From positions 192,001 to 256,000 of the forward strand of contig CAVYJM010000006.1 of NCBI GenBank assembly GCA_963768855.1: a stretch of 64,000 nt of DNA, in the 5' to 3' direction. Position 1 is the first letter of the stretch. The number at the start of each line of letters is the position of its first letter. Positions 3,390-45,971 of this stretch are shown one piece after another. The position numbers and the translations under genes are program-made. Source of the DNA: an uncultured Thermoplasmata archaeon. GTDB lineage: Archaea > Thermoplasmatota > Thermoplasmata > RBG-16-68-12. Under the pieces are notes generated by a model. The model searched no databases. It saw nothing but the letters and a program-made list of their open reading frames with translations, and was not told where the DNA came from.

Positions 3390-3482
3390 ATGAAGCTCAG
3401 CCGCGACGCCAAGTTCTGGATCGTGGTCGCCCTGGCGTTCATCGCCCTCGGCATCCTGCTGGACCTCTTCGTCGGCTTCTAG
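3390..3482 (+). CDS. Putative 30-aa single-TM micro-protein
   Basis: My translation MKLSRDAKFWIVVALAFIALGILLDLFVGF*; host-like codons; fills the gap before the GNAT gene; not in ORF track. Confidence 0.55.
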   Translation: MKLSRDAKFWIVVALAFIALGILLDLFVGF

Positions 3483-3527: not shown

Positions 3528-4325
3528 GTGGACACCCAGGAACTCCTGCGGGCCTGCCTGAGCTTCGAGCGGACTTGGGCGGAGACCGGGTCCGTCGTCC
3601 GGAAGACGCCGTATGGGGTCACGGTCCGGAACGACCGCTTCCCCCGGATCTACATGGCGAACCTGGCCTGGGTCGAGCGCCTCCCGAGCGGCGGGGTCGA
3701 CGAGGTCCTCGCGGACCTCGAGGAGGCCTTCCAAGGCAGCTCGGTGCGCCACCGCAACGTCGTGTTCGAGGATGCCCAGGTGGCCTTCGAGAACCAGGAA
3801 GCCTTCGCCTCCCGCGGCTTCCAGCCGCTCGCGGAGCTCGCCATGGCGCGCCTCGGCCTTCCCGCCTGCGTGACGAACCCGGACGTGGAGGTCCGCGAGG
3901 TGGGCCACGCCGCGCCGGAGGACGACTACCGCCGGCTGCGGATGCGAGTGTTCGAGGGCCTCGAGTATGCTCCGGACGAATCCGAGCAGCTGTACGCGAT
4001 CGCCCGCGACCACGCCGGCCTCCACGGCGAGCGGCACTACGTCGGGTACGTCGAAGGGACCCCCGCCGCGACGATCTCCCTCTGGGCGCGCGGGCGGTTC
4101 GCCTGCATCGGCGACGTGGCCACGATGCCCGAGTTCCGGAACCGCGGCGTCGCCCGGACGCTCGTGTTCGACGTCTCGAAGCGCGCCCTCGCGGCCGGAT
4201 GCGAGTACAGCGTGCTGTTCGCGGACCTCTTCGACTCGCCCCAGGCCATGTACAAGACGCTCGGCTACCAGCCCGTCGGCGAGGTGCGGAGCTTCCTGAG
4301 GGTGGCGCCTCCCGCCCCGGCGTGA
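3528..4325 (+). CDS. GNAT family N-acetyltransferase
   Basis: C-terminal IGDVATMPEFRNRGVA acetyl-CoA motif A and MYKTLGY. Confidence 0.85.
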   Translation: MDTQELLRACLSFERTWAETGSVVRKTPYGVTVRNDRFPRIYMANLAWVERLPSGGVDEVLADLEEAFQGSSVRHRNVVFEDAQVAFENQEAFASRGFQPLAELAMARLGLPACVTNPDVEVREVGHAAPEDDYRRLRMRVFEGLEYAPDESEQLYAIARDHAGLHGERHYVGYVEGTPAATISLWARGRFACIGDVATMPEFRNRGVARTLVFDVSKRALAAGCEYSVLFADLFDSPQAMYKTLGYQPVGEVRSFLRVAPPAPA

Positions 4326-27658: not shown

Positions 27659-28105
27659 CTACTTCAGCACGCCTTCGAAGCGGAGGAGTTTCTTCTTGTA
27701 GTCGAGGCCGCCCGTGAAGCCGCCCAGGCTGTCCGCCCCGACCACGCGGTGGCATGGGATGACGACGCCGATCGGATTCTTCCCTAGCGCGTTCCCCACC
27801 GCCCGTTGAGCGTTCGGGTGACCGATGGCCTTCGCAATCTGCCCGTACGTCGCGACCTTGCCGAAGGGGATCTGCCGCGTCGCCTCGTAGACGCGCCGCT
27901 CGAACGGCGTGGAGTCGCTCAGGTCGACAGGGATGGCCCGCAGATCTCGACGCCTCCCCTGGAAGTACTCCCGGATCTCTGCTTCGATGCGGTCCCCCCG
28001 GCCGTGTGTGGGTCGTTCGCGAGTGAAGCCCATTTCTCGAAGCCGGCCCGCCTCGGTCACGAGCCGGACGTTGCCGAGCGGGGTCGCCAGGACGCGCCGT
28101 TCCAT
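27659..28105 (-). CDS. ogt: Methylated-DNA--protein-cysteine methyltransferase
   Basis: IPFGKVATYG, RAVGNA, IPCHRV. Confidence 0.95.
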   Translation of the reverse strand: MERRVLATPLGNVRLVTEAGRLREMGFTRERPTHGRGDRIEAEIREYFQGRRRDLRAIPVDLSDSTPFERRVYEATRQIPFGKVATYGQIAKAIGHPNAQRAVGNALGKNPIGVVIPCHRVVGADSLGGFTGGLDYKKKLLRFEGVLK

Positions 28106-28181
28106 GTTCGCACCGGGGCGGGGAAGGGCCGGGGCCGATATGGCGTTTGCCCCGGCGAACGCGGGCTCGCGCTCTGGCGGA

Positions 28182-31100
28182 TCAGGACTTCGCTTCGACG
28201 CCGAGCTGCGCCGCGAGGACTTTCAACTCTTCTTCCTTCTTCCGGAGTTTCTCCTCGCGGTCCAGGAGATCGAGAGCCTTCTTCTGGATGATCTTCACGC
28301 GGTTCTCGATGTCGCGTTTCCATTCGTCCATGTCGATCGTGCTCTTGCCCGCCTTCTCGGCCTCGACCAGCTTCGCCCTGAGCTTGTCGTTCTCCTGCTT
28401 CGCCTTCTCGATGCGCGCGGTCAGCTCTTCCTTCTCCGAATCCATGGCGCGGTCCTTCTGGTCGAGGATCTGGGCCCGGGATTCCAGGAGGTGGCTCTGC
28501 TCGTCGACCTTGACCTCGCGTCCGCGGAGCTTCTCCTCGCGGTCGAGGACATCGAGCGCCTTCTTCTGGAGGAATCGCATGTTCTTCGCGACCTCGGCCT
28601 GCATGGCGTCCGCCTGGGTTTTGAGCTTCTCGGCGTCGGTCCGGATGCCCTCGGCGTCCTTTCGGGCCTCCGAGGCCACGCGGTGGTCCTCGTCGACCTG
28701 CGCGGCCCGGGCCTCGTGCTCGCGGCGCAGACGCTCGAGGGTCTGCATCCCTTCCCGGAGTTCGGCGTCCCGCTGCGAGAGCGTCGCCTCGCGCTTCGCG
28801 AGTTCCTGATCCCGGCCGGTGACCCCCTTCTCGCGCGTGACGAGCTCCGCCTCCTTGCGGTTCAGGTCCTCCATGAGGTTGTCCGCGCGCTGGAGCTCGG
28901 TGGACAGGACCTGCTCCCGCGTCGTCACGTCCACGAGCTTGGCCTCCACCGCGGCGTGACGGCTCTCGTCTTCCGCCTGGCGCTTGTCCAGCTGGGCGGC
29001 CAAGGCACCGATCCGCTCGGCCTCCTGGTCTAGGGCCGTCTTGCGTCCCTTGAGGCTTTCCGTGGTCTCGAGCGTCTTCTTCTCCGCGTCGCTCAGGCGG
29101 GCCTGGAGGGCCCCAAGCTCCTTCGCTCGGGAACCGAGCTCGATCTCCTGCTCGCCGAGCCGCTGGGCCGCGTCGCGGAGCTGCGCGTTTTGGGCCTCGA
29201 GGTCCTTCTCCGCCTTCTCAGCGTCCGCACGCCTCCGCTCGATGACCGTCTGGGCCGCGGCGAGCTCATCGCCCTGCCGCTTCGCGGCCTTCTCCGCCTC
29301 GGCTGCGACGTACGCGCGCCGCTGCGCTTCCTCGATGAGCCGCTCGGCTTGCTGGGTCTGTTCTCCGGCCGCGTCCCGCGTGGCCTCCAGCTGTTTCAGC
29401 TCCTCATTCCGGCGCGCGGACCATCCGGCCTTCTCGGACTCGAAGGTCTGGCGGGTCTTCAGGAGCTCGTCCTCCATCGCTTTCAGCTCGCCGAAGCGCT
29501 TGTCGGCGCGGGCCGCGGATGCATCGATCTCGGCCTGCTTCGCGCTCTGTCCCTTCGCCTGGTCCTCGAGCCGCGTCCGCTCGATCTGCGCCTGGGTGAG
29601 GGTCGCGTTCACGCTGCGTTCCCTCTGCTCGAGGTCCTCCATGCGCTTCCGAATCTCGGTCTGGCGGGTCTCCGTGCTGGCGGCGAGTTGGGCCTCTTGG
29701 GACTTCAGTGTAGCCTGGAGGTCCTTCCATTCTTGCTGACGCGCGATGGCCTCGGCTTCGAACTTCTGGACCGTCTCGTCGAACTGAGTCCGGCGAGCGT
29801 TTTGCTCTTGCTCGCCATGGGCCAGGGCCTGCTCTCGGGCGGCGATCTCGGCGGCCCGGGCCTCCGCCTGCCGCTCGCGGGACTCGATCTCGCGGATGCG
29901 GGTCTCGAGGTCCTGCTCCTCGGACCGCAGTTCCTCCTCCCGGGCCGCGAGGGATTTCTCGCGAGCGGCCATCTCCTTGGCCTTCCCGCCCAGCTTTTCC
30001 TGGAGGGCGCTGGATTCCCGCTCGAGGCGCTCCCTCTCCGACAGGAGGTCGGCCTCCTTGGCGGCTAGGGATTGCCGGACCGCATCCGTCTCGTTGCGGA
30101 GCCGGAGGGATTCGGCATCGAGGCGCTCGCGCGTCTGCCCAAGCTCGAGTTGCCTCGCCTCGACCTGCTTCTCCATCGCCTGGTAATCGATCTTCTCCCG
30201 GGCGAGCCGGTCCTCGTCCGCCCGGAGGGCGGACTGCTGGCTCACGAGCGCCGCCTCGCGCGACACGAGATCCGCCTCGTGGACATCCAGTTCCCCCTTC
30301 CGCTGCAAGAGCTCCGCCTCGCGATCCTTGACCTTCTGGGTCTGGGTCGCAAGCTCGCGCTCGGACTGGGCCTTCCGGCCTGCGAGCTCCGCCTCCTGGG
30401 TCTGGAGGGTCTCCACGCGCTTCTCGAGGTCGACGGCTTGGTTCGCCGCCTCCTCGCGGAGGCTGCGTTCGCGGGACTCGATTTCGAGGGAGCGTTGCTC
30501 GAGGTCCGTCTGAAGCCGTTCTCCCTCCGCCTTCAGCGCGCTGGCGGCTCGCAGTCCCTCCGTGGCGAGCTTCTCACGCTTCACGATCTCGGTCTCGTTC
30601 CGCGCGACCCACTCGACGTCCGCCTGGACTTTCGTCTCGCGTTCCCCAAGCTCCTCTTCGCGCTGCTCCACCCGGATCATGCGGCCGGCCCAGGACTCGC
30701 GGAGGTCCTGCATCTCCTTCTCGAAGGTCTCTCTCTGCTCCTTGAGCAAGGCCTGCTCGGATTCGATCGTGGCCTGCCAGGTGCGGAGCTCCTCGGCCTT
30801 TCGGGCCTCCTCGTCCCGGAACTTCGCGGTCTTCCCTTCGAAGTCACGGGTCATCGCGCCGAGCTCGGCCTTGCGGGTCTCGACCTCGGCGCGCGCCTTC
30901 TCCAGCTTGTCCGCCTCGATCTCCAGCGTCTCTTCTCGGGCTGCGAGCTCGGAGAGCCGACGAGCGTTCTCCTCGGCCTGGCCTCGGATTTCAGCTTCAC
31001 GATCGGCCTGGCCCTGCTCCTTGGCCTCCAGCTCGATTTCCTTGGAAGCGATCCACTGGCTCTTCTCGAGCCTCAGGGCCTCGAACGTTTCATTGTCCTT

Positions 31101-34100
31101 TGTGAGTCGCATCCGCGCCTCGCCGAGCGTGCGCTCTTGGCTCGCGGTCTGCGCTTCGCGCTTTTGCATTTCCTGCGCGAACTCGGCCTTCTTCGCCTCG
31201 AGCTCCTGATGTTCCGCATCGAAGGCGCCCCTGGCGTCCTGGAGGAGCATCTTCTCCTGCGCGAGCGCGGTCTCGCGTTCCTTCAGCTGCTCCATCTGTT
31301 GCTCGATCTCCAGCGCTTTGGCAGCCACGAGGTCCTGCTGGCCTTGGGACACGTTGCGTTCCTCCGCGAGCGCCTTCTCGCGCGCCGCGAGATCGTCCTC
31401 CTTTTGGACGAGGGCAGCCTCGCGCGGACCGAGATTCTCCTTCAGGCTGGTCAGATCCTGAGTTTTCTTCGTGACGTCCGCCTCTTGCTCCGCGAGCGCG
31501 GCCGTCTTCGCGTCGAGAGCCTTGCGCTCCTCGACAGCCTCCAGCGTCAGGTCGTCCAGCGCCTTGCGCTCGTCTGCGAGGTCCTGCGCACGGGTGGCGA
31601 GCGCCACCTCCCGCGAGTGGAGATCCTCGAGCTGGGCGCGGATTTCCTTCTCCCGCGTCGACACGACGTCCTCCCTCAGGGCGAGGGCTGAGTCACGGGA
31701 TGAGAGTTCAGCCTCGCGTGCCGCGAGGCTCTGCTCGCGCGGTTCGAGGTCGGATAGCTTCGCCTGCAGGGTCCGCGCGGCATCCGCGTTTTCCTTCTCG
31801 CGTGCCTCGACCGCCGACATCGTCGCCTTGAGGCTCTCCTCTTCCTGATCGATCTGAACGCTGAGGTCGTCGAGCGATTTGCGTTCCTCGGCGAGTTCGG
31901 CTTGCAGGGCGTCGATCTGGTCGGCCTTTGTGCGGTAGTCTTCGAGGTCCGCGGTCAGCTTTGTCTGCGCCGCAGCAAGGGACTGATCCTTGTCCGCGAG
32001 ATCAGCTTCCCTCTTCGAGGCTTCCTCGAGGCGACCCGTCAGTTCCTTCTCCTTCGGCGCGAGGCTCGTCTCGCGCTCCCGGAGTCCTTGCTCGGTCTCC
32101 TGGAGTTCGCTTCGCTGGGATTCGAGGTCCGCTGCGGTGCTATCGAGCTCCGCCTGCCTCGTTTCCATGTGGGCCGCCTGCTCCTCGAGGGTGGCTCGCA
32201 CTTCCGCGAGATTCCCTTCCCTCTCCCGGAGATCTGTGTCCAGGCGGCGGAGCTTCACGGCATCCGCGTCCATCTTGGTTCGGGCGATGGTGAAGGCGTT
32301 GACCATGTCTCCGAAGACGCGGGCACGGGCCTGAAGGTCCGCACGCGACTCGTTCGCGTCGGCGCGGTCGTTCTCCAGGGTCGTCTCCTCGGCGCGGGCC
32401 TCCTCGACGCGTTGCTTGACGCGGTCCTCGAGCTTGTCCTGGATGCTGACAAGGAGTCCTCGGGCGAACTCGACCTCTCCGACGTCGGCGGGTCCGACCG
32501 CGAGCATGATCAGGGAGAGCATGTCCCCCCGGACGGCGCGCGCATGGTACTTCGACACGCGGACGTCCTTCTCCACGGCGTTGAGGGCTCCCGCCTGGAG
32601 GGCCTGGTCATACGTGACCTCACAGGAGGGATCCAGGGTGAATTCCCTGAGCAGCTGTCCGCGTTCGTCCACGAGGAAGGCCTTCGTTGGCCTCCAGCGT
32701 CGTCGTTGTACAAACATGGCTACCACCATGAGCAAGCCGATGGGGGGAATGGCAAGGAAGTAGGGAGACTGCCACCACGGGGGAATGGGCGGGGCCGAGA
32801 CGGTCACCCGGACGTCCGGGTCCGAGCCGGTCATTGTGAAGACGATGTCGCCCGAGTCGTTGACCGTCCCGTCCGCGAAGTCGGAACTGTCCTTCGTCAC
32901 GTGGTACAGGAATCGCGAGGTGTTCCCGCCGATGGTCCACGTGATCGTCTGGGACGTTTCGCTGGACGTGTGCGTCCAGGCGTATTCGGAACCGGGGTTC
33001 CACGAAGTGAAGGCGGAGATCGTGACGAGGGCCGTTGTATCGCTGTTCGTGACCGTGAGTCCGGTGACGTTCACGGTCCCATACGCGATGGTTCCGTTCA
33101 CGGTCAGGCTGTTGAACGCGATGCGGTAGCCGGTCATGGTCAAGATGCCCGAGGCGTTCACGATCAGGCTCATGGCCGTCACTGCGGATGCGAGGGTGAT
33201 GGCCCCCGCGATCGTCAGGGTCGCGAATTGCTGGCCGGCGCCGAGCGTGATGGTCGTGCCGGCGCCGGTGAAGGTCGCGGACGAGCCGGTGGAGGTGAAG
33301 GCCGTCGCGGAGGAGGTGCCCCAGGAGCCTCCGACGGAGATCGTCGCGGAGGCGAAACTGAGGGCCGCGGCGCCGGATGAGGTCAGGTTGTCCTGGAACG
33401 CGACCGTGGCGCCGGTGAGGTTCAGGACCGAGGACCACGTGATGTTCGAGGTGAAGGTCGTCGTAATGCCCGGGTTCACCGTCAGGCTGTTCAGGGGTTG
33501 CGGAACCCGGATCGTCCCGCCGGACGCGTTGACCACGATGACGGAGCTGCCCGCGGTGAAGGCGCCTGCCGAGGTGTCCATCGCCCGGATCGTGAGGACG
33601 CTTCCGTTGGCGAGGAGCGCCCCGCCCGCCCGGACCGCCAAGGTGTCCGCGGTGATTGGGAGGTCCGAGCCTGCGGTGGTCACGGTGGTGGTCCCCGAGC
33701 CGCCTTGGACCGTGAGGGTGTGAACCTGCAAGGCGGAGCCTGTCAGGGTGAAGACGACGGTCGAGGCGCCGCCGTTGAACACGACCGCGTTGAACTCGGG
33801 ACCCGCGAGATTAGTCCCGGCGAAGGTCATCGTCTGGGACGAGGCCGTGTCGAACGTCACGCTTCCTGTACCCGCGGACCACGACGCCGAGGTCGAGCCG
33901 TTCGTCCAGCTTCCCGAGACCGTCCAGGCCTCGGAGCCGAAGGCGATGTACGAGGTGGCCGCGGAGATGTCGACGTTGCCCGTGATTGTGACGTCTCCGG
34001 ACGCGGAGGTCAGGTACCCCCCGGCGAGGGTCAGGTCGCCGTCCACCGTCAGGGGGTTGCTGCCCTTCGCAAGGCCGCCCACAGAGAGCGTCAGGGACGT

Positions 34101-37100
34101 CGCCGAGAGTTGCGTCGTCTGGGTGTACGCCCCGGAAAGATTCAGGGTCGCGAAGCTCTGCGCCGCTCCCAATGCGATCGTGCCCGAGGGGGCCGTGAGA
34201 GTCACCGTGGAGGTCCCGGAGCTGAAGGTGGACGCAGGCCCGGAGGTGTCCCAGGATCCCGAGACCGTGATGGATCCCGTCGTCAGGGACAACATGTCTG
34301 CCGCGGCGTCGTTCATGGTCACGGCGGACACGGAGATCGACGCGGTTGTCCCGATGAAGGCTCCGCCTCCGGAAATGACGAGGCTCGCTCCGCCTGTGAC
34401 GTTGTTGCCCGCCGTCGTCAAGGTCCCCGTGATGGCCAGGGAGCTGCTCACATCGATCGCACTGGCCTGTGTGACCGTGCCCGAGATCGTGAGGCTGTAG
34501 AAGCCGTCGGTGGGATCCAGGATCGTCAACGTGCGCGCCGTTCCCGACATGGTCACCGCGCCGGTGCCCTTCGTGAACGTCGAGCCGGATCCGGAGGTGT
34601 CCCAGTTGCCGCTCACCGTCCACGAGCCGGTCGTCATCGTGATTCTTCCGGAGACGCCCCCGGTCATCGTGACGTCGGCGACGGCAACGGCCGAGGCGTC
34701 TGCGGTCAGGATCCCGGAATTGCCGACCGTCAGGGAGCCTCCCGCGAGAGCGAGGTCCGCGGTCGCCAGGGTCGTGATCGAGCCCGCCGGATCTTGGATC
34801 GTCAGGGTGCCGCTCCACTTCAGGGAGTTGGCGCCGATTGTGAACGTGACCGCGCCGCTGACCGCGGTCGAGGCGAACGTGACGTTGTTGAACTCCTTGC
34901 CGCTGAAGCCCCCTAGGCTCATCGTCTGGGGCGTCGCGGAATTGAACACGACGGTCCCCGTGCCCGCACCCCAGTTCGCCGAGGTGCTGCCGTTGGACCA
35001 GGAACCGCTGAACGTCCACGTCCCGCTGCCCATCCGGAAGTAGGCCGTGGCGCTCGTGATCGAGGTGTTCCCTCCGATGCTCACCAGGGAGGCGGCCCCG
35101 GAACCGTCGAGGACCGCCGTGTCCGAGACGGTCAGGTTGCCCGTGACCGTGAGCCCGGCGCCGGCGGACGTTCCCACGGTGAGGTTCCCGCCCGCCAGCG
35201 TGAGGTTCCCGCCGACCGTGAAGTTGAATGTGCCGACCGCGATCGTTCCCGCCCATCCCGTGGTGCTCAGGGAGGCCATCGTGGCGTTCTGGTCGACCGT
35301 GACCGTACCGCCTCCGGAGTTCGCATCGAAGAAGGTCGCGCTCGCTCCGCCTGGAGCCGGGCAGCCTCCTGCGCCTCCCGAGGTGGCGGACCAGTGCGCC
35401 GAGTCGGACCAGTTGCCCGCGCCGCCGACCCAGTAGCGGGTTCCGCCGCATGGCGCGGCGATGATCACGTCGACCACGGGGTCGGACCCGAGCATGGTGA
35501 AGACCACCTGGCCCGAGCCATCCACCATGCCCGTCGTGAACGCCGTGCCATCCTTCGTGACGTTGAAGCGGTACCCGCTCGTGTTCCCGCCGATTGTAAA
35601 GGTGAGCGTCGACGTCCCGACGGTCGAGGCGTCCGTCCATCGGAACTCGCCGTCCAGAACCCACACGGAGAAGACGCTGACCGTCGTGAGATTGGTCGGA
35701 TCACTGTTCGTGATCGTCAGGTTGACCACGGTGACGACGCCGTCCACAATGCTCCCGGTCCCGGTCTCCGCGAGCCCGTTGAAGGTGAGGTTCTGTCCCG
35801 TCTTCGTCAGAACGGCCCCGTCTGTGATGCTCAGCGTCGCGAGGGCGGTCACGGTGGAACCAAGAGACGCCGTCCCACCGATCGTGAGATCATAGAACGC
35901 CTGCCCCGCCGCGAGGCGGATGGTCGCGGAGGTCCCGAGGAACGTCACCGTGGAGGTTCCGGCGGAGAAGGCCGAGCCGGCGCCCGAGGTGTCCCAGCTA
36001 CCGCCCACGCTCCATGACCCGGTGGTCACCGCGATCGTTCCGGAGGTTCCTCCGATCATCGACACGGCCGTGACGCTGACCGCCGACGCGTTTGAGGTCA
36101 GGATGCCTCCGTTGCCGAGGCTTATCATCCCGCCCGTCAATCCGAGATCGTTCGTGGCGAGGGTCGTGGTCCCGCTTCCTCCCACGATCGTGAAGATTTC
36201 CGCCCACACCACGCCGTTGCCGGCCATGGTGAACGTGACGGTGGAGGCGCCGCTGCTGAAGGTGAGGTTGTAGAACTCGGCTGCACCCCCGGGAAGTGAC
36301 GCGAACCGCATCGTCTGGGACGATGCCGAGGTGAAGGTCACCGTGGCTGTCCCCGCAGACCAGCTGGCGGAGGTCGAGTTGTTCGTCCACGATCCGCTCA
36401 CGGTCCACGTCTCCGATCCGAAGGCGATGTACGAGGATGCGGCGGAGACGGTCACGTTCCCCGCGATGCTGACCGCCCCGGACACGGACGTCAGCGCGCC
36501 TCCGGACAGGATGAGCCCGGCATTCGCGGTCAAAGCGTTCGCACCCTTCACGAACGTTCCGCCGGACAGGGTGAGCAGCCCGTTCGTGGTGAGCGGGCCC
36601 AGGAGGGTCCGCGTGCCCCCGCTGATCGTGACGGCGGCGAGGGCGGCACCCGCCCCGAGGTTGAGGCTGCCGGTGCTCGAGAACGTCACCGAGGAGCCCG
36701 TCCCGGTGAAGCCGGTCGCGGAGGATGTGTCCCAGCTGCCGGTGCTCATCGTGATGGTCGCGGACGCAAAGGTGAGGGTCGCGGCCCCGCTGGAGGTGAG
36801 GTCATTCGTCCCGAAGCTGATGATCGCGCTCGTCAGGGTGAGGGTCCCGCTCCATGCGAGCGGACCGCTAAACGTGGTGGAGATGCCCGGATTGACTGTG
36901 AGGTTGTTGGCGGTCTGCGTGAGGTTGATCGTCCCGCCCGAGGCGATCACGACCACGGTCGATGTACCGACATCGAACGTTCCCAGGTGGGTGTCGATGG
37001 AGGTGACGGTGATCGTGCACCCGTTCGCGGTCAGGGCCCCCGTGCTCGCGAGGACAAGTGCGACGGCCGCAATCGGGAGATTGGATCCGGAGGTGCTCAG

Positions 37101-40100
37101 GATCGTGTTCCCCGTCGGGCTCGCCGTGGAGTTCTGCACGGTGAGGGTGCCGCCCGCCCGGAGTCCGTTGGTCGCCAGGGTGTACGTGACACCGCCCGCC
37201 ACGCTCGCGTCGAATGTGACATTGCCGGCGAACTCCAGCGGCAGGTTCCCGAACGTCATCGTCTGAGATGTGTTGGATCGGAACGTGATCGAGGCCCCGA
37301 AGCTCCACGATGCCGACGTCGAGGAATCCGTCCAGGTGCCGTTCGTGACCGTCCAGGACCCGGCAGGCGACGAGGTGACGTATCCCGACCCGTTGTTCAC
37401 GGTGACGTTGCCCGTCACGATGACGAGGGATGCGTTCGACTTGAGGATTCCCGCGGCTCCGCTCACCGTGAGGCCCGCGCCGGCCGTGAGGGAGTAGTTC
37501 GCGGCGGTCGTGTCGAGCGTGCCGACGACGGTCAGCAGTCCGTTCGCGGTGAACTGGCTGCCGAGCGAATAGCTGCCCGATACGGTGACCGTCGAGAAGC
37601 TTTGCGAAGCCGCAGCCGTTACGGTCTTTCCTGCACCGGTGAAGGAGACGGTCGAGCCCGTTGACGTGAATGCAGTTACCGTGGACGTGTTCCAGTTGCC
37701 CGCGATGTTGACCGTTGCGTTGCTGATCGCGAGCGTCGCGGGACCCGAGGACGTGAGGTCGGAGTTGAACGTCGAGGTGGCCCCGGTGAGGGTCAGGACG
37801 CCCGACCAGCTGATCGCCGACGTGAACGTCGTGCTGACGCCTGGGCTCACGGTCAGGCCGCTCAACGTCTGCGGGACGTTGACCGTCCCGCCGGAGCCAC
37901 CGACGACGAGGGTGGACGTCCCCGGCGCAAAAGTCCCCAAGTGCGTGTCGATGGACGTGATGGTGATTGTGGACCCGTTGGCCGTGAGCGCCCCGCCCGC
38001 AACGACATTGAGCGCGGTGGCGCTGATGGCAAGGTTGGAAACGCTCGTGTTCAAGGTGGTGACCGAGGCGCCGCCGCCGAGGGTGAGCGTTCCGGCGATC
38101 GTCATTCCCCTTGCGGCCAGGGTGAAGGTGACCGCTGACGGCCCCGAGTTGAACGTCACGTTGTTGAGCTCGTTCCCGCTGAGGTTGGAGCCCGCGAACG
38201 TCATCGTCTGGGCCGATGCCGCGTTGAACAGGACCGTCCCGCCTCCGGGATTCCACGACGCCGAAGTGCTGGCGTTCGTCCAAGTCCCCGCAATCGTCCA
38301 GGACTCGGACCCGAAGGAGATGTACGAGGCGGGGGACGAGATGTTCACGTTGCCCGTCACCGTCACGCTCCCCGAGGAGGACGTGATGGCCCCGCCTCCG
38401 AGGGTCACGTTGCCGTTGATGGTGAGGACGTTCGTCCCCTTCGCGAGCGTCCCTCCATTCACGTTCAACGCGGCGGCGGTGATCGCGCTTCCAGCGGTCG
38501 CCGTGCCCGCGGAGATCGTCAGGATGTTGAATGCCTGGGCGCCGCCGAGCGTGATCGTCCCAGAGGCCGCGAAGCTGACCGTAGAGGTGTTCGGGTTGAA
38601 CGCCGCCCCTGCGGCGGTCGACGTCCAGTTGCCGTATACCGTAATGACACTCCCGTTGGCGGTCAACGTGCCGTTCGTCCCGAGGGTGAGGCTTCCGGCG
38701 GTGATGGTCAACGCGGCTCCGGAGGTGTTGAGGACCGTGTTGGCCGTCGGCGTTGCATTGGAGTTGAGAATCAGGAGCGCGCCGGCGATTCTCAGACCGT
38801 TCGTCACCATCGTGTACGCGACGCCGGCTGCAGCCGCGCTATCGAGGGTGAGGTTGTTGAACTCGTTCCCAGCCAGGTTGGTCCCGGCGAAGGTCATCGT
38901 CGCCGCGGAGGCGTCATTGAAGAGGATCGTTCCCGTCCCCGCTGACCAGGAAGCGGACGTGCTCAGGTTAGCCCACGAGCCGCCGATCGTCCAGGTCTCC
39001 GAGCCGAAGGCGATGTACGAGGCGGGGGAGGAGATGCTGACGTTTCCCGTGACGGTCCCAGACCCGGATGTGGAGGTCAGTGCTCCCCCGGACAGGGTGA
39101 GGGCGCCCGCAGCCAAGGTGAAGGTCCCCTTCGCAAGGAGGCCGGCCGACACGGTCAGGGTCGCCGTCACGGTGGTGTTGGCGGCGAGCGTCGCGGTCCC
39201 GGCCGACACGGTCAGGTTGTTGAAGGCCTGGGTCATGTTGATGGCCGCGGCGGCGGTGAAAGCGACCGTACTCGTCGCGGCGGTGAACGTGGCGTTCGCC
39301 GCGGTCACCGTCCAGTTGCCGCCGACGCTGATCGTGGATCCATTTGCCCGTAGCGTCCCGTTCGTCCCGATCGTCACGGATCCTGCGGCGATGCCCAGGT
39401 CGGCGCCCGAGGTGTCGAGGATCGTGTTCCCCGTGGGACCGACGACCGAATTGCGGATGGACAGGAGTCCGGACAGGGTGAGGCCGTTCCCGGCCATCGT
39501 GTAGGTGACGCCCGCGACCGCCGTCGTGTCGAAGGTGACTGCGCCTCCGATCCGTCCCGCTCACCTTGAACGTCATCGTCTGGCTGCTCGCGCTGCGGAA
39601 CGTGATGGGGGCGGGGAACGACCAAGAGGCCGAGGTCGTAGCGTTGGTCCACGAGCCGGTGACGGTCCACGCCCCGGCCCCCGTGCTGGTGATGTACCCG
39701 CTCGCGGCGACGCTCACGTTCCCATTCGCAGCGACGGCCGCGCCCCTCGAGGTGTAGGCTCCCAGGGCTCCGAGGCTCAGGCCGCCCAGAGTGGAACCGT
39801 AGTTCGTGGCGGTTGCGTCCAAGGCAACCACGCCGGTCGCGCCCGCTGCGGTGTTCCGAACCGTCAGGGTCCCGGCCGCCTGGAGCGCGTTGACCTGGGC
39901 ATAGGTGAAGCCGCCGACGACCGAGGAGTCGAGGACGAGGTTGTTGAACTCGCTCCCCGTCGCGGTCCAGAAGGTGAGCGTGGTGGCTCCGGAATCCACG
40001 ATCCGCACGGTTGACGAGGAGACGGACCAGCTGGCGGGGACTGAGATGTTGCTGTTCGTCCACGATCCGTTGATCGTCCAGGTCCCGGCTCCCGTGAACC

Positions 40101-43100
40101 GGACCGCCCCTCCGGCCGCGATCGTAACGTTCCCTGAAGTCGTGGCCATGCTCGCCTCCAGGTTCAGGACGCCGCTCGCGCCGATCGAGAGCGTGGATTG
40201 AAGGGTGAGGGTGAAGTTCGAACCCGAGGTGTCCAGGGTGCCGTTCACGGACGTGGCGCCCGACACGGTGACGTTCGAGCCCAGGGTGGTCGTCCCCGCG
40301 TTCTGGGTCAGGGTGTTGAAGGACTCGCCGACGCTCATCGTGAGCGTCCCGCTCGCGCCGAACACGACGGTCGAGGTCCCTTTGTTCCACACATGGTTGG
40401 CGGCGGTGGACGTCCAAGAGCCGTTGACCGTAATCGTGGAGCCGTTCGCGGTCAGGGTTCCGCGGCTGCCGAGGACAAGCCCTCCGGACGTGAGGGGGAG
40501 ATTCGAGGCGCCCGTCGTCAGGACCGTGTTTCCCGTGGGCGTGGCCGCAGTGTTCACGACTGTCAGGGTCCCCGCAATCCGGAGACCGTTCGTCGCCATC
40601 GTATAGGTCATGCCTGCGGCGGTCGTCGTGTCGAAGACCACGTTGTTGGCCTCGTTCGCTCCGAGGTTGGCAAAGGCCATCGTCGCGTTCGCGGGGGCCC
40701 GGAACGTGAGCGTGCCGGTCCCTGCCGACCAGTCGGCGCTGTCTGCGGTGTTGTTGGTCCACGAGCCCGCGATGGTCCATGCCGCGCTCCCGAGCACGAG
40801 ATAGGAGTTCGCGTCCGAGACGAGCACGGCTCCACTGATCGTGACGACGGATCCTTCGGATCTCAGGGCGCCTCGGGGGTTACCGAGGGTGAGTGACCCT
40901 GCGCTGAGGTTGTAGCTGCCCGCGGACGTGTCGAGGATTGTGGCGGCGGTGGCGCCCGCCGCCGTGTTCCGGATGGTTAGGGCGCCCCCGATCTTGAGGG
41001 AGGCATCCCCCGTGGCACCGGCCGCCATCATGTAGGTGATGCCGCCGGTCGACGTCGTGTCGAACGTCACAGCGCCGCCAAACTCGTTGCCCGCGAGATT
41101 CGAGCCGGTGAAGGTCATCGTTTTCGAAGCGGCAGCGCGGAAGGTCACCGCCGCCGCGAAGGACCAGGAGGCGGACGTGGTCCGGTCCGTCCAGAGGCCT
41201 GTGATGGCCCACGAGCCTCCCGTGTTCGTGATGTAGGCACTCGTCGCACCGATTGTGGCGTCGCCGTTGAGGGTGATCGTCGAAGCCCGCGTGTTGAATG
41301 CGCCCAAGGCGGATTCGGTCAGTCCGCCGGCCGTGACGGCGAGATTCCCCGCGGAAGTGTCCAGGATGACGGGCCCCGTCGCTCCCCCTGCGGTGTTCTG
41401 GACCGTCAGGACGCCACCGAGGTCCAGCGGGTTCGTCACCATCGTGTACGTGACGCCAGCCGCGGCGGTCGTGTCGAACGTCACGGCGCCGCCAAACTCG
41501 TTGCCCGCCTGGGCTCCAAAGGTCATCGTCTGGGCTGCCCCGGAGCGGAACGTGATCGGGGCGACGAAGGACCACGAGGCCGACGTGGACGTGTCCGTCC
41601 AGGATCCGGTGACTGTCCACGCGCCTCCCGCGTTCGCCACGGAGCCGGTGGCGGCGGAGACGTTGACGTTCCCGTTGACGGTGACGCGGAGGACTCCGAA
41701 TTGAACGCCCCCAGGTCGCGACCGTGAGCGCGCCTGCCGTGACGACCAAGTTGGAGGTGGACGTGTCCAGTCGCGTGGCCCCCGTGGCTCCGGCCGTGGA
41801 GTTGCGGAGAATCAGGGTGCCGGCCATCCGCAGTCCGTTCGTGGCCATCGTGTACGTCAGGCCGGCCGCGACACTCGCGTCCAGAGTGAGGTTGTTGAAC
41901 TCGTTCGTCGCGCCCGCTAGGTTGGCGAAGGTCAGCGTGCCGCTCCCGGCGTCCCGGATCGTGACCGTCCCGGTCCCCGCCGACCATGTGGCCGACGTGG
42001 AGTTGTTCGTCCACGTCCCGCTGATGGTCCAAGCGGACGTGCTCATCGTCACCACGGTTGCGGCGCCGAGGATCGTGACATTGCTGGAGATCGTGACGGT
42101 CGATCCCGGGGCAGGAAGGTTCCCTGGATCGTGAACGCGCCGTTCACGGTGAGGGGCCAGTTGTTGGCATTCGTCGTGTCGAGGGTTCCCGTGAAGCCCG
42201 TCATGTCGAGGCCGGCAATCGTGGTCGCCGCCGCGAGCGTCGTCGTCCCTGTCGGACTCGCGTTGAAGATGGCCAAGTCTGTCGCGGTCGGCGTGCATCC
42301 GCAGGATGCGCCACCGGAGGAGTTGGACCAATTTGCCGGGTTGCTCCACGCTCCACCCGCGCCGATCCGATAGCAGTTCGCTCCGCCGATGCTGCCGCAC
42401 GTCGGGGTGGCCACCACTTCCACCGCGGAGACGACCCACGTCGTCGCCGCGTTGGTCCAGGTGACCGCGGTCCCCGGGTTCGGGATGTCGGCGCCGGCGG
42501 CACATTCGTTGGAGCCCCCCCCTCCCGTGCAGTGCTGGATCGCCACGCCATACAGATCGGTCGCGGCCGCTCCGGTCCCAGTCACCGCGGTTGGCGGTAT
42601 GCCACCGCCTCCCTGCTGGATTGCCGCCACGGCGACGCCCAGGTTTCCGATCGAGATGGCTGACGTGAAGGTGATTGCCGCGTTGGTGGCCGTGTCCGTG
42701 TCGCTCGTTCCATTGATGAACGAACCGCTGGCCTTGACGCCTTGGAGGAGGATCGTGGCGCAGGACATCCTCGCGACTTGGCCTCCGGAAAGCGTGGCCG
42801 TCATCGTCTGGGCGCCGACCGGCACGCTGCCTGCGAACCCCCAGATCTCAGTCCTGACGAAGGTGCCGCCGTTCGCATCCGTGCTGGCTACGAGCGTGAG
42901 GCTGGCCGATCCGTACGTTACCGAGAGAAGAGTGAACGTCCCGCGTTCAGAGAGCATCACGAGGATCGCGTTGTCCGAGACCGCGGCGGTCTGGGATGTC
43001 GTACAGGTGTTCGTAGCCACGGTCACGTCGGTCACGGTCGTGCTGTCGACGACCACGGCCGCCCGCGCATCCCAGGTGAACAGGCCGAACACCCAGGCCG

Positions 43101-43488
43101 TGGCGGAGCGGACGGCTGCGCCCCAGTCGACCGGCGGGAACCACCGGTCGATGGCGTGGGCCACGCCTGCCGCGAGGGACTCCGGCTCCTGGCTCGGATG
43201 GGTGAATACGTTCAGGTTGGGCTGGAGATACCCCCTCTCGGCAAGCTGCATGGTCGGATACGAGGACCGAGCGGGTCCGAAGTACGTCAGATTCCAGAAC
43301 GGTTGCAGATCGTTGCCGCCGAACAGGAGGCGCTGGAGTTCGGGAGTGAGGGCGTGACCCGGGATGTGGAGGCTCCCGTCCGGCGCGCGATACGGAGCCA
43401 GCGGGTCCGTAGAAACGTGACTTACGAGTGCAAGTCCGGCCGTCGCCAAGAGGATGCAGGCGAGGAACGCCGCGCTCGCGGGTCTCAC
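28182..43488 (-). CDS. Giant surface protein (~5,100 aa reconstructed): repetitive beta-rich ectodomain, single TM, cytoplasmic longin-like domain and long coiled coil; four frameshifts in 5' part
   Basis: Track ORFs 42049-43578, 40880-42505, 41523-42032, 38968-41640 and 28182-39497 carry one continuous T/S/G/A-rich repeat text; frame changes at ~42105, ~41714, ~41686, ~39550; GTG start 43488 followed by hydrophobic signal. Confidence 0.8.
32800..42400 (-). repeat. Intragenic coding repeats of giant ectodomain
   Basis: About a dozen W-T-x-x-S/T-T-S-A-S-W-S units with flanking TMTF…EF…VTF and NG(S)xITV…TSTV motifs; imperfect at DNA level. Confidence 0.85.
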
Positions 43489-43692
43489 GGGACCACCGCG
43501 CTCTCGAGAGCCGATCCGCCTGCGTTGACCCGGCCGTCCAGCGTCGTACGGCGGAGCTCGGTAGGGCGCGCGCTCCATCGGGCCAGGATGCGATGTACCT
43601 GAGTACGCGACTGGGAATGCATGGTCGCCGTTCCCCGGCCGCGACGAGTTGTCGCCTGCGGCGGAATCGGGAAAAACGACCTCTTTCGGACC

Positions 43693-43702
43693 TATTTAAG
43701 AG
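43693..43702 (-). promoter_or_regulatory. TATA-like element CTCTTAAATA upstream of giant gene
   Basis: Same 10-mer (TATTTAAGAG on + strand) also at 45235-45244 upstream of the next paralogue. Confidence 0.5.
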
Positions 43703-43754
43703 AAGTCGGGTGGTTATCTGACCTGATTCCCTAGGGACGCGGGGAGGGTCCCGA

Positions 43755-45086
43755 CTATCGGGCCGGGAGGTTCCCGGACAGGCGGGCTTCGAGGGCTTCG
43801 AGCTCCGCGGCGCGCCTGCGGAGTTTCTCCTCTCGATCGAGCAGCTCCAGAGCCTTCTGCTGGATGATCTTGACACGTCGCTCGATGTCCTTGCGGGCCT
43901 CCTCGCTCTCGGCCGGGGACACTCCCGCGTCACTCGGGGCCGCCTTGGCGAGGGCCCCCTCGCGCGTGATCAGATCCTGCTCGCGTTTGGCGAGGGCCAT
44001 GTCCCGCTCCTCCATCGCCATCTCTCGTCCGCGGATCTTCTCCTCGCGGTCGAGCATCTCGATAGCCCGACGCTGCAGGAACTTGCGTTCCTTGCCGAGC
44101 TCCGACTTGACCGTCTCGAGCTCCTGCGTCGCGGCCGGAGAGGAGACGCCGGATGCCTCCGGAGGCTTGTGGGAGTTGACGAGCCGTTCTTTCGCCATCG
44201 CGGCGAACCTCTGGCTGAGCTCTTGGACGCGTCCCTCGATCGCGACGCGCATCCGCTCTGCCTCCGCCTCGCGGGCCGCCGCGTCCGCGCGCTCCCTGGC
44301 AATCGCGTCGGCGGCTTCCTTGGATTGCTGCTCGAGCTGGCGCACCTTGTCGGAGGCTTCGCGGTATTTCGATTCGAGCTCGTCCCGAGCGACCAGGAGA
44401 GCCTTCCGCTCGTCCTCGAACTGGTGGCGCAGATCCGTGAGCGCCTTGGCGTCCGCAAGATCGTGATTCTCGGCCGCGGATGCGGCCAGATGTTCGCTCA
44501 TCTCGAGCGACTGCCGTGCCCGGTCCACTCCGCTCGCCACGCCCTGCTGCATCTGGGCGACGTAGTCGGCAAGGGCCTTGAGCCGGTCCTTCTGACGGGC
44601 GAGCTCCTCGCCCCGCCCGTTCAGGTTCGCCTCGTCCGCCTTGAGCTGGACCTCGAGCTTGGCGAGTTCTTTCTCCCTCGCCTCGAGCTGCGCTTGGCGG
44701 TCGGTCAGCGCGGCATCCGGCTCGGCGTTCGCCTTCGGCGGTTCGAGGGCCCGGCCGGCCACGGTCCGCTTGGCCTCCGCGGCAAGATGGGCGTCTGCAG
44801 CGGTCAGGAGGGTCGCGGTCCAGTCCATGTCCTCGGGCGCCAGCTGTCCGCGCGAAAGGAGCACGAACACGAACTTCCCGCTCTGGAATGCGGTGAAGAC
44901 GTACTCGCCGACGAAGAGGGCCTCACGGTCGCCGATCCCGTCATCCGGGAGGACCTTAAGGAAGTCGTTGTAGTCAATGGGGCAGTCCGAATCCAGGACG
45001 TACTCCCCGTCCATGTCCCCCATCTCGTTGAGGACGTAGATCTTCTTCAGTTGTGCGCGCGTGGCTTTCTTCGAAGGAGGCGCCAT
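43755..45086 (-). CDS. Soluble longin/roadblock-like domain + coiled-coil protein (paralogue of giant protein tail)
   Basis: KIYVLNEMGDMDGEYVLDSDCPIDY N-domain; C-terminal DIERRVKIIQQKALELLDREEKL. Confidence 0.8.
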   Translation of the reverse strand: MAPPSKKATRAQLKKIYVLNEMGDMDGEYVLDSDCPIDYNDFLKVLPDDGIGDREALFVGEYVFTAFQSGKFVFVLLSRGQLAPEDMDWTATLLTAADAHLAAEAKRTVAGRALEPPKANAEPDAALTDRQAQLEAREKELAKLEVQLKADEANLNGRGEELARQKDRLKALADYVAQMQQGVASGVDRARQSLEMSEHLAASAAENHDLADAKALTDLRHQFEDERKALLVARDELESKYREASDKVRQLEQQSKEAADAIARERADAAAREAEAERMRVAIEGRVQELSQRFAAMAKERLVNSHKPPEASGVSSPAATQELETVKSELGKERKFLQRRAIEMLDREEKIRGREMAMEERDMALAKREQDLITREGALAKAAPSDAGVSPAESEEARKDIERRVKIIQQKALELLDREEKLRRRAAELEALEARLSGNLPAR

Positions 45087-45299
45087 GAGCACGGATGCGA
45101 GGGCGGGGCCGAGTGCCCTGAAGACGATACCGGTGACCAGGGTCTCGCGAACCCCTTGCATGCGCTGCCCGCCTCGGCGTCGCGAGGGCTGGACCTCGCG
45201 TTGCCATCGTGCAAGAATCGACTCGCCAGAAGGTTATTTAAGAGGGGGCCCTTGGTTATCGGGGCTGAGAAACTCTGCCTGCAGACGGGGGATTTTCTC

Positions 45300-45971
45300 T
45301 CAGGCCGGGGTCGGGGGGAGGCCGGCTGCGGCGCGGGGGTCCTTCGCCTTCTCCTCCTTCGCCGGGAGGAACGTGCGCTGCATCTGGACCGCGTAGTCGC
45401 GGAGCGTCACGAGCTTCGCCTCCCGCGAGCGGATGTCCGCCTCGAGTTCGTTCAGCCTCGTCGAAGCGACCCGGATCTCCGATTCCATGGTTCCTGCGCG
45501 CTGCTCGCGTCGGGCGAGGTCGGACTCCCGCTGTGCGATCTCCTGCTCCCGCGCCCGCAGGTCCAGATCCTTCTTCGCGAGGAGGGGCTCGATCATGGGC
45601 GGGATGTGGATGCGCGCGGCCGCGAGGAGCGTTCCCACCGAGCCGCGCTCTTCGATGCGGGGCACGCCGTGGGTGAGGATGACGAACCAGAGGTCGTCCA
45701 CCTTGAACGGGGTGAAGGCGTACTCGCCCTGGTAGAAGCTGACGAGGTGGCGCAGGCCGCTCACGGGCACCGAGCGGACCAGGTCGGAGTTCTCGAGAGG
45801 GCAATCGTCGTTGAGCGCGTACTCGCCGATGAGGTTGCGGTTCGAATCCATGACGAAGATCCTCTCATAGTCGATCTGCGGGACCGTCTTGGGGCCCCGG
45901 ATCGAGAACCTCGTCGGGACAATCCCGCTCGCGTTCCGAGTCTTCTCATCCTGCTCGCTGACCTCTCGCAT
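45300..45971 (-). CDS. Short longin/roadblock-like domain + coiled-coil protein
   Basis: RIFVMDSNRNLIGEYALNDDCPLE N-domain; LxxRE heptads; GGAGAGGAGG RBS. Confidence 0.8.
   Translation of the reverse strand: MREVSEQDEKTRNASGIVPTRFSIRGPKTVPQIDYERIFVMDSNRNLIGEYALNDDCPLENSDLVRSVPVSGLRHLVSFYQGEYAFTPFKVDDLWFVILTHGVPRIEERGSVGTLLAAARIHIPPMIEPLLAKKDLDLRAREQEIAQRESDLARREQRAGTMESEIRVASTRLNELEADIRSREAKLVTLRDYAVQMQRTFLPAKEEKAKDPRAAAGLPPTPA

Follow-up and report, generated by a model that had tools for sequence, protein, structure and literature searches.

We analyzed a 64,000-nucleotide stretch of DNA (G000:C6:192001-256000, hereafter the window) from the metagenome-assembled genome (MAG) of a soil/wetland Thermoplasmata archaeon, which comprised 2.87 Mb in 24 contigs with 93.6% completeness and 7.7% contamination. 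The window has a GC content of approximately 67%, and the feature considered here is a giant gene on the reverse strand (28182..43488, stop codon included), with a probable GTG start at 43488. The evidence given below strongly indicates that the gene encodes a single-pass type I membrane glycoprotein of approximately 5,103 amino acids (aa), with the ectodomain outside the cell and a longin-like domain and a coiled-coil rod inside. Two genes for soluble paralogues of the giant protein are located directly upstream on the same strand: a medium one of 468 aa (43755..45161) and a small one of approximately 223 aa (45300..45971, with the reading frame open to 46022). The gene for O6-methylguanine-DNA methyltransferase (MGMT) was found downstream of the giant gene at 27659-28105 on the reverse strand (DNA_binding_1, E 1.2e-33), as in orthologous loci. 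The gene order small, medium, giant, and MGMT recurs in these loci and in congeners.

The longest unbroken frame of the giant gene covered 28182..39497 (3,771 aa, P0001), and tblastn with an unbroken orthologue of 5,018 aa (P0002) revealed frame changes upstream of it near 42104, 41713/41688, and 39550, along the frame path -2 (43488-42103), -1 (42124-41708), -2 (41712-39550), and -3 (39560-28185). The sequences at the three breaks are ctgCCCCGGGatc, cctGGGGGcg, and acggatcgg. The frameshifts were checked with Logan contigs from four wetland and sediment runs, which were aligned to window positions 28000-44000. At 42104, one base is absent next to a C4G3 run, and a contig of run X6 carries an additional C; within 41688..41713, two single bases are absent, one at 41713 in a G5 run and one at 41688, and the X6 contig carries an additional G and C; at 39550, AT is absent, and a contig of run X2 carries it. 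All three sites were read on the reverse strand. The X6 contigs differed from the window by 0-2 letters at a depth of 2.7-3.7, and at this low depth a real lesion in the window strain is still possible. The X2 run represents a relative of approximately 97.5% identity, whose contig covers 38431-40336, and its AT restores T-E-F-G-G, exactly the residues of P0002. The number of missing bases (1 + 2 + 2 = 5 at three sites) matched the frame changes seen, and a frame of 5,103 codons with zero stops was obtained when N was inserted at the five positions. Unbroken orthologues of 3,500-5,462 aa are known. Even with this reservation, the population and all relatives carry an unbroken gene, and it is strongly indicated that the giant gene is intact in nature. 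No RNA run was listed among the public runs matching the gene. The MAG thus has small indel errors able to split real genes, some beside homopolymer runs, and other genes of this MAG are possibly split by similar missing bases.

The arrangement of ectodomain, transmembrane (TM) helix, domain, and rod recurred across the same junction in 54 homologues of 2,099-5,462 aa from independent assemblies (NCBI, ENA, JGI, and Logan), among which the junction was 50-85% identical, and open frames of 2,600-4,500 aa run across it in congeneric genomes. As none of the listed fragmentary public contigs bridges 32694-32958, the support for the junction was taken from the orthologues instead. An artefact or a pseudogene, that is, a junction misassembled at approximately 32700, a pair of distinct genes, or a gene inactivated by frameshifts, would be in line with the three frame changes in the window, the contamination of the MAG, and the fragmentary state of the public contigs. 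Such an origin is nevertheless highly improbable, as it is opposed by the recurrence of the junction in independent assemblies, the long congener frames across it, the repair of every frameshift by public contigs, and the position of the indels at or beside homopolymer runs, with two sites specifically adjoining such runs. The prediction made earlier from this DNA (the sequence-only reading) had itself named separate genes or a misassembly near 32700 as the outcome that would overturn it, and both were refuted by the 54 homologues. It had also called for repair of the frameshifts and for orthologues with the same two-sided architecture; the five bases from public contigs supplied the former and the 54 homologues the latter.

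Hydrophobic segments were identified by a Kyte-Doolittle scan (KD19 > 1.8) at residues 4-22, 3427-3445, and 3577-3595. The first belongs to a Sec-type signal peptide with the probable GTG start (43414..43488), in which R is followed by AAFLACILLATAGLALV, and orthologues begin with similar signal peptides. The second is hydrophobic but lies inside a confidently modelled beta-helix. The third is the single TM helix (32697..32783; PPWWQSPYFLAIPPIGLLMVVAMFV), which is kept in all homologues and is followed by QRRRWRPTK, in accord with the positive-inside rule. The sequence-only reading had listed a signal peptide, a TM helix at approximately 32700-32780, some 3,500 aa outside and 1,500 aa inside, and, within the inner part, an alpha/beta domain of approximately 100 aa and a heptad rod of approximately 1,400 residues. 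These assignments held: the outer and inner parts were found to measure approximately 3,570 and 1,507 aa, the alpha/beta domain is 110 aa long with a predicted longin-like fold, and the heptads of the rod were recovered by autocorrelation. What goes beyond that reading is the longin-like identity of the domain, the swap of ectodomains between relatives, and the adjoining soluble paralogues.

The ectodomain begins with a region of approximately 340 aa (42400..43413) that is 58% identical to P0002; this region had zero Pfam or NCBIfam matches, and its best result in the Atlas feature search was only 0.81 and uninformative. The remainder (32784..42399) is repetitive and sequon-rich, with a predicted beta-helix and two beta-sandwich modules at approximately 35313-35630 and 32790-33110. 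The T/S/G/A-rich composition described earlier was confirmed in the ectodomain part within P0001 (2,238 aa; T 18%, G 14%, S 13%, and A 13%), as was the richness in N-x-S/T sequons, of which 91 were counted in the whole ectodomain (63 +/- 6.7 in shuffles) and six in the tail; the ectodomain is thus probably N-glycosylated. For the last 851 aa of the ectodomain, the part that was modelled, AlphaFold2 (AF2) with a 24-row alignment predicted an all-beta structure of short strands with a beta-sandwich at the end, at a predicted local distance difference test (pLDDT) value of 93.5. Exhaustive structural alignment of this model by VIA gave the passenger of the autotransporter Vag8 at Z 21.2 (343 residues aligned, root-mean-square deviation (rmsd) of 4.6 A), followed by UpaB (Z 18.1), pertactin and HMW1 (Z 15.3), Ag43, TibA, EtpA, PfbA, and phage tailspikes. 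Foldseek searches of the PDB returned nothing stronger than weak rows for tailspikes, RsaA, and Awp1, all at very low template modelling (TM) scores. The label 'adhesin-like' given by the sequence-only reading is therefore valid at the level of the fold, a right-handed beta-helix. Textbook beta-helix geometry suggests an ectodomain length of approximately 60-75 nm if it is mostly one solenoid. In the ectodomain repeats, position 36986 is directly followed by 37941 in a near-identical X6 contig (record 30), and the absence of the 954 bases between them (an in-frame stretch of 318 codons) represents either a repeat-number polymorphism or a short-read collapse.

The outer part differs among relatives. 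In the congener G002, the same three-gene locus encodes a TM protein of 2,772 aa with CBM96 (DNRLRE), Disaggr_repeat, DUF1349, GH43_C2 (ConA-like), and Big_9 domains. Congeners fall by open-frame length into a giant type of approximately 3,600-4,500 aa and a lectin type of approximately 2,600-2,850 aa, with the lectin-type ectodomain identified by Pfam in G002 and the other congeners typed by open-frame length. It is thus strongly indicated that the outside is an exchangeable cassette, either a beta-helix giant or a lectin type of CBM96, ConA-like, and Ig domains, and that the module of TM helix, longin-like domain, and rod is constant.

The juxtamembrane domain (32373..32696, 110 aa) is very highly conserved in a 54-row alignment (A1), with an invariant Cys in an LDxxC motif. 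Its AF2 model had a pLDDT of 84.7, with the core mostly >90, and continues into a long helix. The predicted elements (E5-12, E18-23, H32-37, E48-50, E53-59, E64-70, and H75-) follow the order b-b-a-b-b-b-a of the longin topology, in which helices pack against five antiparallel strands. All Foldseek matches belonged to the longin/roadblock superfamily (zeta-COP, AP mu, MglB, MglC, Rag C-terminal domains, sedlin, and LAMTOR; E at least 0.017, probability of approximately 1). The best VIA match was AP-2 mu (Z 8.3, rmsd 2.5 A, 87 aa), where Z < 8 is common with this tool, and many other longin and roadblock entries followed at Z 6-7.7, with VAMP7 and sigma subunits among the top kinds. The ESM Atlas returned the family's own soluble members first and then Clat_adaptor_s and Sybindin clusters at TM scores of 0.61-0.63. 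By sequence, no match at E <= 0.1 to the Pfam longin families (Longin, Clat_adaptor_s, Sedlin_N, and Sybindin) was obtained with the whole protein, the domain had no NCBIfam match, and the best hit of a PDB sequence profile search was the vinculin tail at E 0.078. The Robl_LC7 profile (PF03259), searched genome-wide, matched seven other loci and not the domain at C6:224364-224705. At the sequence level, the domain is an undescribed family, with a longin-like fold in its predicted model. In row 9 of the Atlas results, the longin-like model was superposed at a TM score of 0.57 on a domain from a bacterial cluster named 'putative OmpA family proteins' (572 aa). This match is reminiscent of the membrane protein, as yet uncharacterised, that Group 1 Rup GTPase operons encode (PMC4316618).

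Pfam Ras was matched 20 times in the genome, and 18 of these matches covered the full domain at E 5e-22 to 2.5e-39; this complement seems large for a non-Asgard archaeon. The Ras loci include C6:749275-749769, C7:106450-108233 (three in tandem), and C12:41751-42891 (two in tandem), and one weaker match at C6:942428-942856 adjoins two roadblock genes. The seven Robl_LC7 (MglB-like) genes (L010-L016) are located at C6:941711-942354, C6:293506, C11:155982, C11:352163, C6:636225, and C6:391799, with none at the locus of the giant gene. MglB, Ragulator, TRAPP, and Mon1-Ccz1 are precedents for the docking or regulation of GTPases by such folds. By analogy, and as the main rival to the scaffold proposed below, the giant might be an outside-in receptor or polarity platform, in which the ectodomain binds a ligand or surface, the membrane-proximal longin domain, dimerised through the coiled coil, docks or regulates a Ras-like GTPase, and the rod scaffolds effectors. 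The longin/roadblock fold of the juxtamembrane domain and a genome with approximately 18-20 Ras-family GTPases and seven Robl_LC7 proteins speak for this explanation. It is nonetheless rather unlikely, since zero Ras or Robl_LC7 matches were found within the window or adjoining the fourth paralogue described below (the nearest Ras-family match being approximately 32 kb off on the same contig), the conserved neighbours are two soluble paralogues and not a GTPase, and docking leaves an indel-free rod of 1,400 residues unexplained.

The tail after the TM helix comprises 1,507 aa (E 16.6%, A 15.2%, L 11%, and R 10.8%), of which approximately 1,400 aa form the coiled-coil rod (28185..32372), rich in E, A, L, R, Q, and K. 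Its BLOSUM autocorrelation peaked at multiples of 7 (z 4-11) up to a lag of 161, with a mean z of 2.7 at multiples of 7 versus -0.18 elsewhere. Windowed Fourier analysis gave a period of 3.45-3.6 almost throughout, as for a long heptad rod. The rod contains only three prolines, at tail positions 217, 322, and 427, with a spacing of 105 residues (15 heptads). Each of them (window 31092-31724) stands in L-x-P-[KR]-E, and the proximal third in general is the least conserved part of the tail. A straight coiled coil would be approximately 207 nm long (1,397 x 0.1485 nm), assuming a continuous rod without fold-back. Length was the most telling feature of the tail: among 14 aligned relatives, two of them of the lectin type, it measured 1,505-1,508 aa in all but one, whose tail had 1,502 aa, while ectodomains measured 1,364-3,957 aa. 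The 14 tails were aligned at 55-78% identity with gaps at the termini only and zero internal indels. More distant members had tails of 1,130-1,680 aa. When the giant and its neighbours were scanned with Pfam and NCBIfam, domain matches were not obtained; coiled-coil noise (FBF1, SMC arms, RNase_Y_N, and FlbB) remained far under the cut-offs, and precomputed PF27881 (CRWN_N) and PF27734 (Cytadherence_Hmw2) assignments on homologues were weak or faint coiled-coil matches.

The best conserved part of the rod is its distal end. Every full-length homologue ends with KA..LLDREEKLRKKEEEL..LA.QLGV. Approximately 95 residues upstream, the motif occurs a second time. In the giant, the first conserved motif (FLQKKALDVLDREEKLR) was mapped to 28515..28577 and the terminal one (IIQKKALDLLDREEKLRKKEEEL..LAAQLGV), at the extreme C-terminus, to 28185..28295; the consensus of the rod end is KALxLLDREEKLRKKEEEL..LA.QLGV. 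A golgin-like tether or ruler could use such an end, with the rod reaching up to approximately 200 nm into the cytoplasm and the C-terminal motif capturing the nucleoid, a division structure, or the opposite membrane, so as to set a distance and not a layer. The rod has its most conserved motif at the far end from the anchor, a length fixed to the residue, and few helix breakers, all of which would suit a ruler. As the motif is also internal, and is found behind the longin head in soluble paralogues, self-assembly fits it better than cargo capture; moreover, a candidate target was not found, and no MIT domain was found in the genome for a terminal helix resembling an MIT-interacting motif (MIM). 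We consider the tether improbable. The terminal EEEL..LA.QLGV helix had been examined as a Vps4-binding MIM and was rejected, as the search of the 93.6% complete genome returned no MIT domain and an ESCRT survey paper gave no such link.

The soluble paralogues share the head and the rod of the giant. The medium protein matched the A1 profile at E 5.5e-34; it combines a longin-like head with a coiled coil, carries the C-terminal motif of the giant, and measured 464-470 aa in nearly all full-length relatives listed. The small protein has a longin-like head and a short coiled coil; it matched the 468-aa gene at E 6e-19 and the A1 profile at E 6.3e-8, and syntenic genes encode 222-223 aa. A fourth member of the family (L002, G000:C15:96616-100038, 1,140 aa) has a longin-like head with the motif KALDLFDREEKLR right behind it, a hydrophobic N-terminal stretch, and a basic, low-complexity C-terminus. 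Its rod is collinear with tail residues 555-1473 of the giant over 924 aa (38% identity, near-gapless, E 2.7e-146). Thus, the longin head and rod homology were found in all three paralogues and the KALxLLDREEKLR motif in two of the three. These relations bear on the view that the tail is a mere oligomerising zipper, which clusters a surface protein and has no scaffold role, with unrelated paralogues linked by chance. Coiled coils do commonly oligomerise, and the beta-helices of the ectodomain may need pairing; yet 1,400 indel-free residues at 55-78% identity with conserved ends represent far more constraint than a zipper needs, and the paralogues have a common head, a common motif, and 924 aa of collinear rod. 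Only a slim chance is given to this view. In a complex prediction, the longin domain of the giant paired with that of the medium protein at a score of 0.56, compared with 0.01 for the best control, with at least 67% contact agreement among runs and a partner pLDDT of at least 60. Of 80 solved complexes, 58 passed the mark applied, as did two of 110 mismatched pairs; passing scores <= 0.60 belonged to only seven of the 80 solved complexes and to both of these mismatches. The result lends weak support to the pairing.

The family was found in 23 of 24 congeneric genomes. Every genome from two other families of the order (five in total) had it as well, and the 11 genomes from another four families, at 84-96% completeness, had no match. 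When 1.84 billion cluster representatives were searched exhaustively with a profile of the domain, only 100 reached E <= 0.001, and these were TM giants and soluble proteins of 100-700 aa. A narrow hidden Markov model built from the domains of the giant class matched only the giant gene in the genome; thus, the broader A1 profile was needed for the paralogues. In NCBI and JGI, homologues are named hypothetical, 'DNRLRE domain-containing', or 'chromosome segregation ATPase'. The last name is wrong, as SMC membership fails: the matches were limited to coiled-coil arm positions 690-1023 at 35 bits, compared with cut-offs of 567 and 729, and ATPase heads and a hinge are absent. We searched the literature on giant and coiled-coil proteins of Thermoplasmata, archaeal longin or roadblock domains combined with TM helices, surface proteins with cytoplasmic coiled coils, and Angelarchaeales, and a description of the family was not found. 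The paper defining Ca. Angelarchaeales (RBG-16-68-12) makes no mention of such proteins, and an archaeal membrane skeleton of coiled coils is not described in the literature searched. The putative placement of the source in this lineage draws on the names under which homologues are recorded (Thermoplasmata archaeon and Euryarchaeota archaeon RBG_16_68_13).

We propose, with a probability of approximately 0.5, that the giant is a variable module of the cell surface held by a coiled-coil scaffold of constant length beneath the membrane. The proposal, like the mechanical coupling to a cytoskeletal or polar scaffold suggested by the sequence-only reading, draws on the architecture, the indel-free tail length, the linked paralogues, and one weak complex prediction. 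In this mechanism, the rod would dimerise as a parallel coiled coil, and the longin heads of the giant would form pairs with the heads of the two soluble paralogues encoded at the same locus. The common rod segments and end motifs would then link soluble members with membrane-bound ones to build a scaffold of set dimensions beneath the membrane, through which the giant could anchor a variable adhesive or coat module to an internal skeleton. Cultured relatives (Thermoplasma and its kin) have no rigid wall.

Several points weigh against the scaffold. The rod, a putative dimer, may be straight, fold back, or lie along the membrane, and 200 nm is a considerable length for a rod inside a small cell. 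The archaea that are the source of this DNA may carry a wall or an S-layer. Solved structures include many dimers of roadblock and longin domains, so the pass in the complex prediction may reflect likeness only. Elsewhere, longin and roadblock domains are platforms for GTPases and not structural elements, which, together with the approximately 18-20 Ras-family GTPases of the genome, favours a signalling role.

A wider version of the scaffold proposal, offered tentatively and by analogy, is that the family might be a prokaryotic counterpart of LINC/nesprin or integrin-cytoskeleton linkers. An exchangeable adhesin would be coupled to a coiled coil acting as a molecular ruler, and the rod and the longin-headed soluble paralogues would build a submembrane skeleton of fixed mesh in wall-less archaea, where the unusually numerous Ras-like GTPases of the organism might also switch the longin heads. 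How wall-less or S-layer-only archaea hold their shape, place surface structures, and sense contact is largely unexplained, and the family provides a concrete and abundant handle on these questions, with a constant TM-longin-rod module of residue-exact length, exchangeable surface modules, and co-encoded soluble partners. It also adds a non-Asgard lineage with a longin-like fold at the membrane and a Ras-rich genome, which bears on the prehistory of eukaryotic membrane traffic.

The giant was compared with known systems part by part. Its beta-helix shares the right-handed beta-solenoid and a long repetitive sequence rich in T, S, G, A, and N with autotransporter and two-partner secretion (TPS) adhesins (Vag8, UpaB, pertactin, Ag43, TibA, HMW1, and EtpA), and the solenoid also with phage tailspikes. 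Unlike these adhesins, the ectodomain is sequon-rich and is anchored by its own TM helix in an archaeal host with a single membrane; sequence identity is approximately 10%, with no family matches. A beta-barrel translocator, a TPS secretion domain, or a TPS partner was not detected by Pfam or NCBIfam, and a beta-sandwich, an alpha-helical TM segment, and a cytoplasmic tail were found instead. The giant resembles the TM-anchored surface and S-layer glycoproteins of archaea in having a signal peptide, many sequons in its ectodomain, and only one TM helix, placed close to where the outer part ends. In these glycoproteins, the chain stops within a few residues of the anchor or PGF-CTERM is used, whereas the giant continues for 1,507 residues and has no PGF motif in its TM region.

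On the inner side, the order b-b-a-b-b-b-a is shared with longin domains (AP-1/2/3/4 mu and sigma N-terminal domains, zeta-COP, TRAPP sedlin/synbindin, VAMP7/Ykt6/Sec22, and SRX) and with Roadblock/LC7 domains (MglB, LAMTOR, and the Rag C-terminal domain). The domain of the giant differs from them in its position between a TM helix and a rod of 1,400 residues, in the moderate Z scores, and in the lack of a linked GTPase or SNARE motif. The coiled coil is touched by SMC models of NCBIfam, but the ATPase head and hinge domains of SMC proteins are missing. Golgins such as giantin and the nesprins of LINC complexes offer an analogy, as they carry a very long rod on one TM helix, with binding sites at the far end and mechanical bridging; however, they are tail-anchored with almost nothing beyond the membrane, and nesprins use spectrin repeats, whereas the giant has 3,570 aa outside. 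Crescentin, FilP, Scy, and HMW2, the rod protein of the Mycoplasma terminal organelle, share with the giant a long heptad rod that is best conserved at its ends, together with paralogues that might assemble jointly. Homology to these four proteins was not detectable, and filament formation is hypothetical for the giant, which in contrast to them joins an adhesin and a rod in one membrane-crossing polypeptide. HMW2 acts in a wall-less host in which adhesins are tied to an internal skeleton, as proposed here for the giant. The union of a surface glycoprotein, a beta-helix adhesin, and a coiled-coil scaffold in a single polypeptide is unprecedented.

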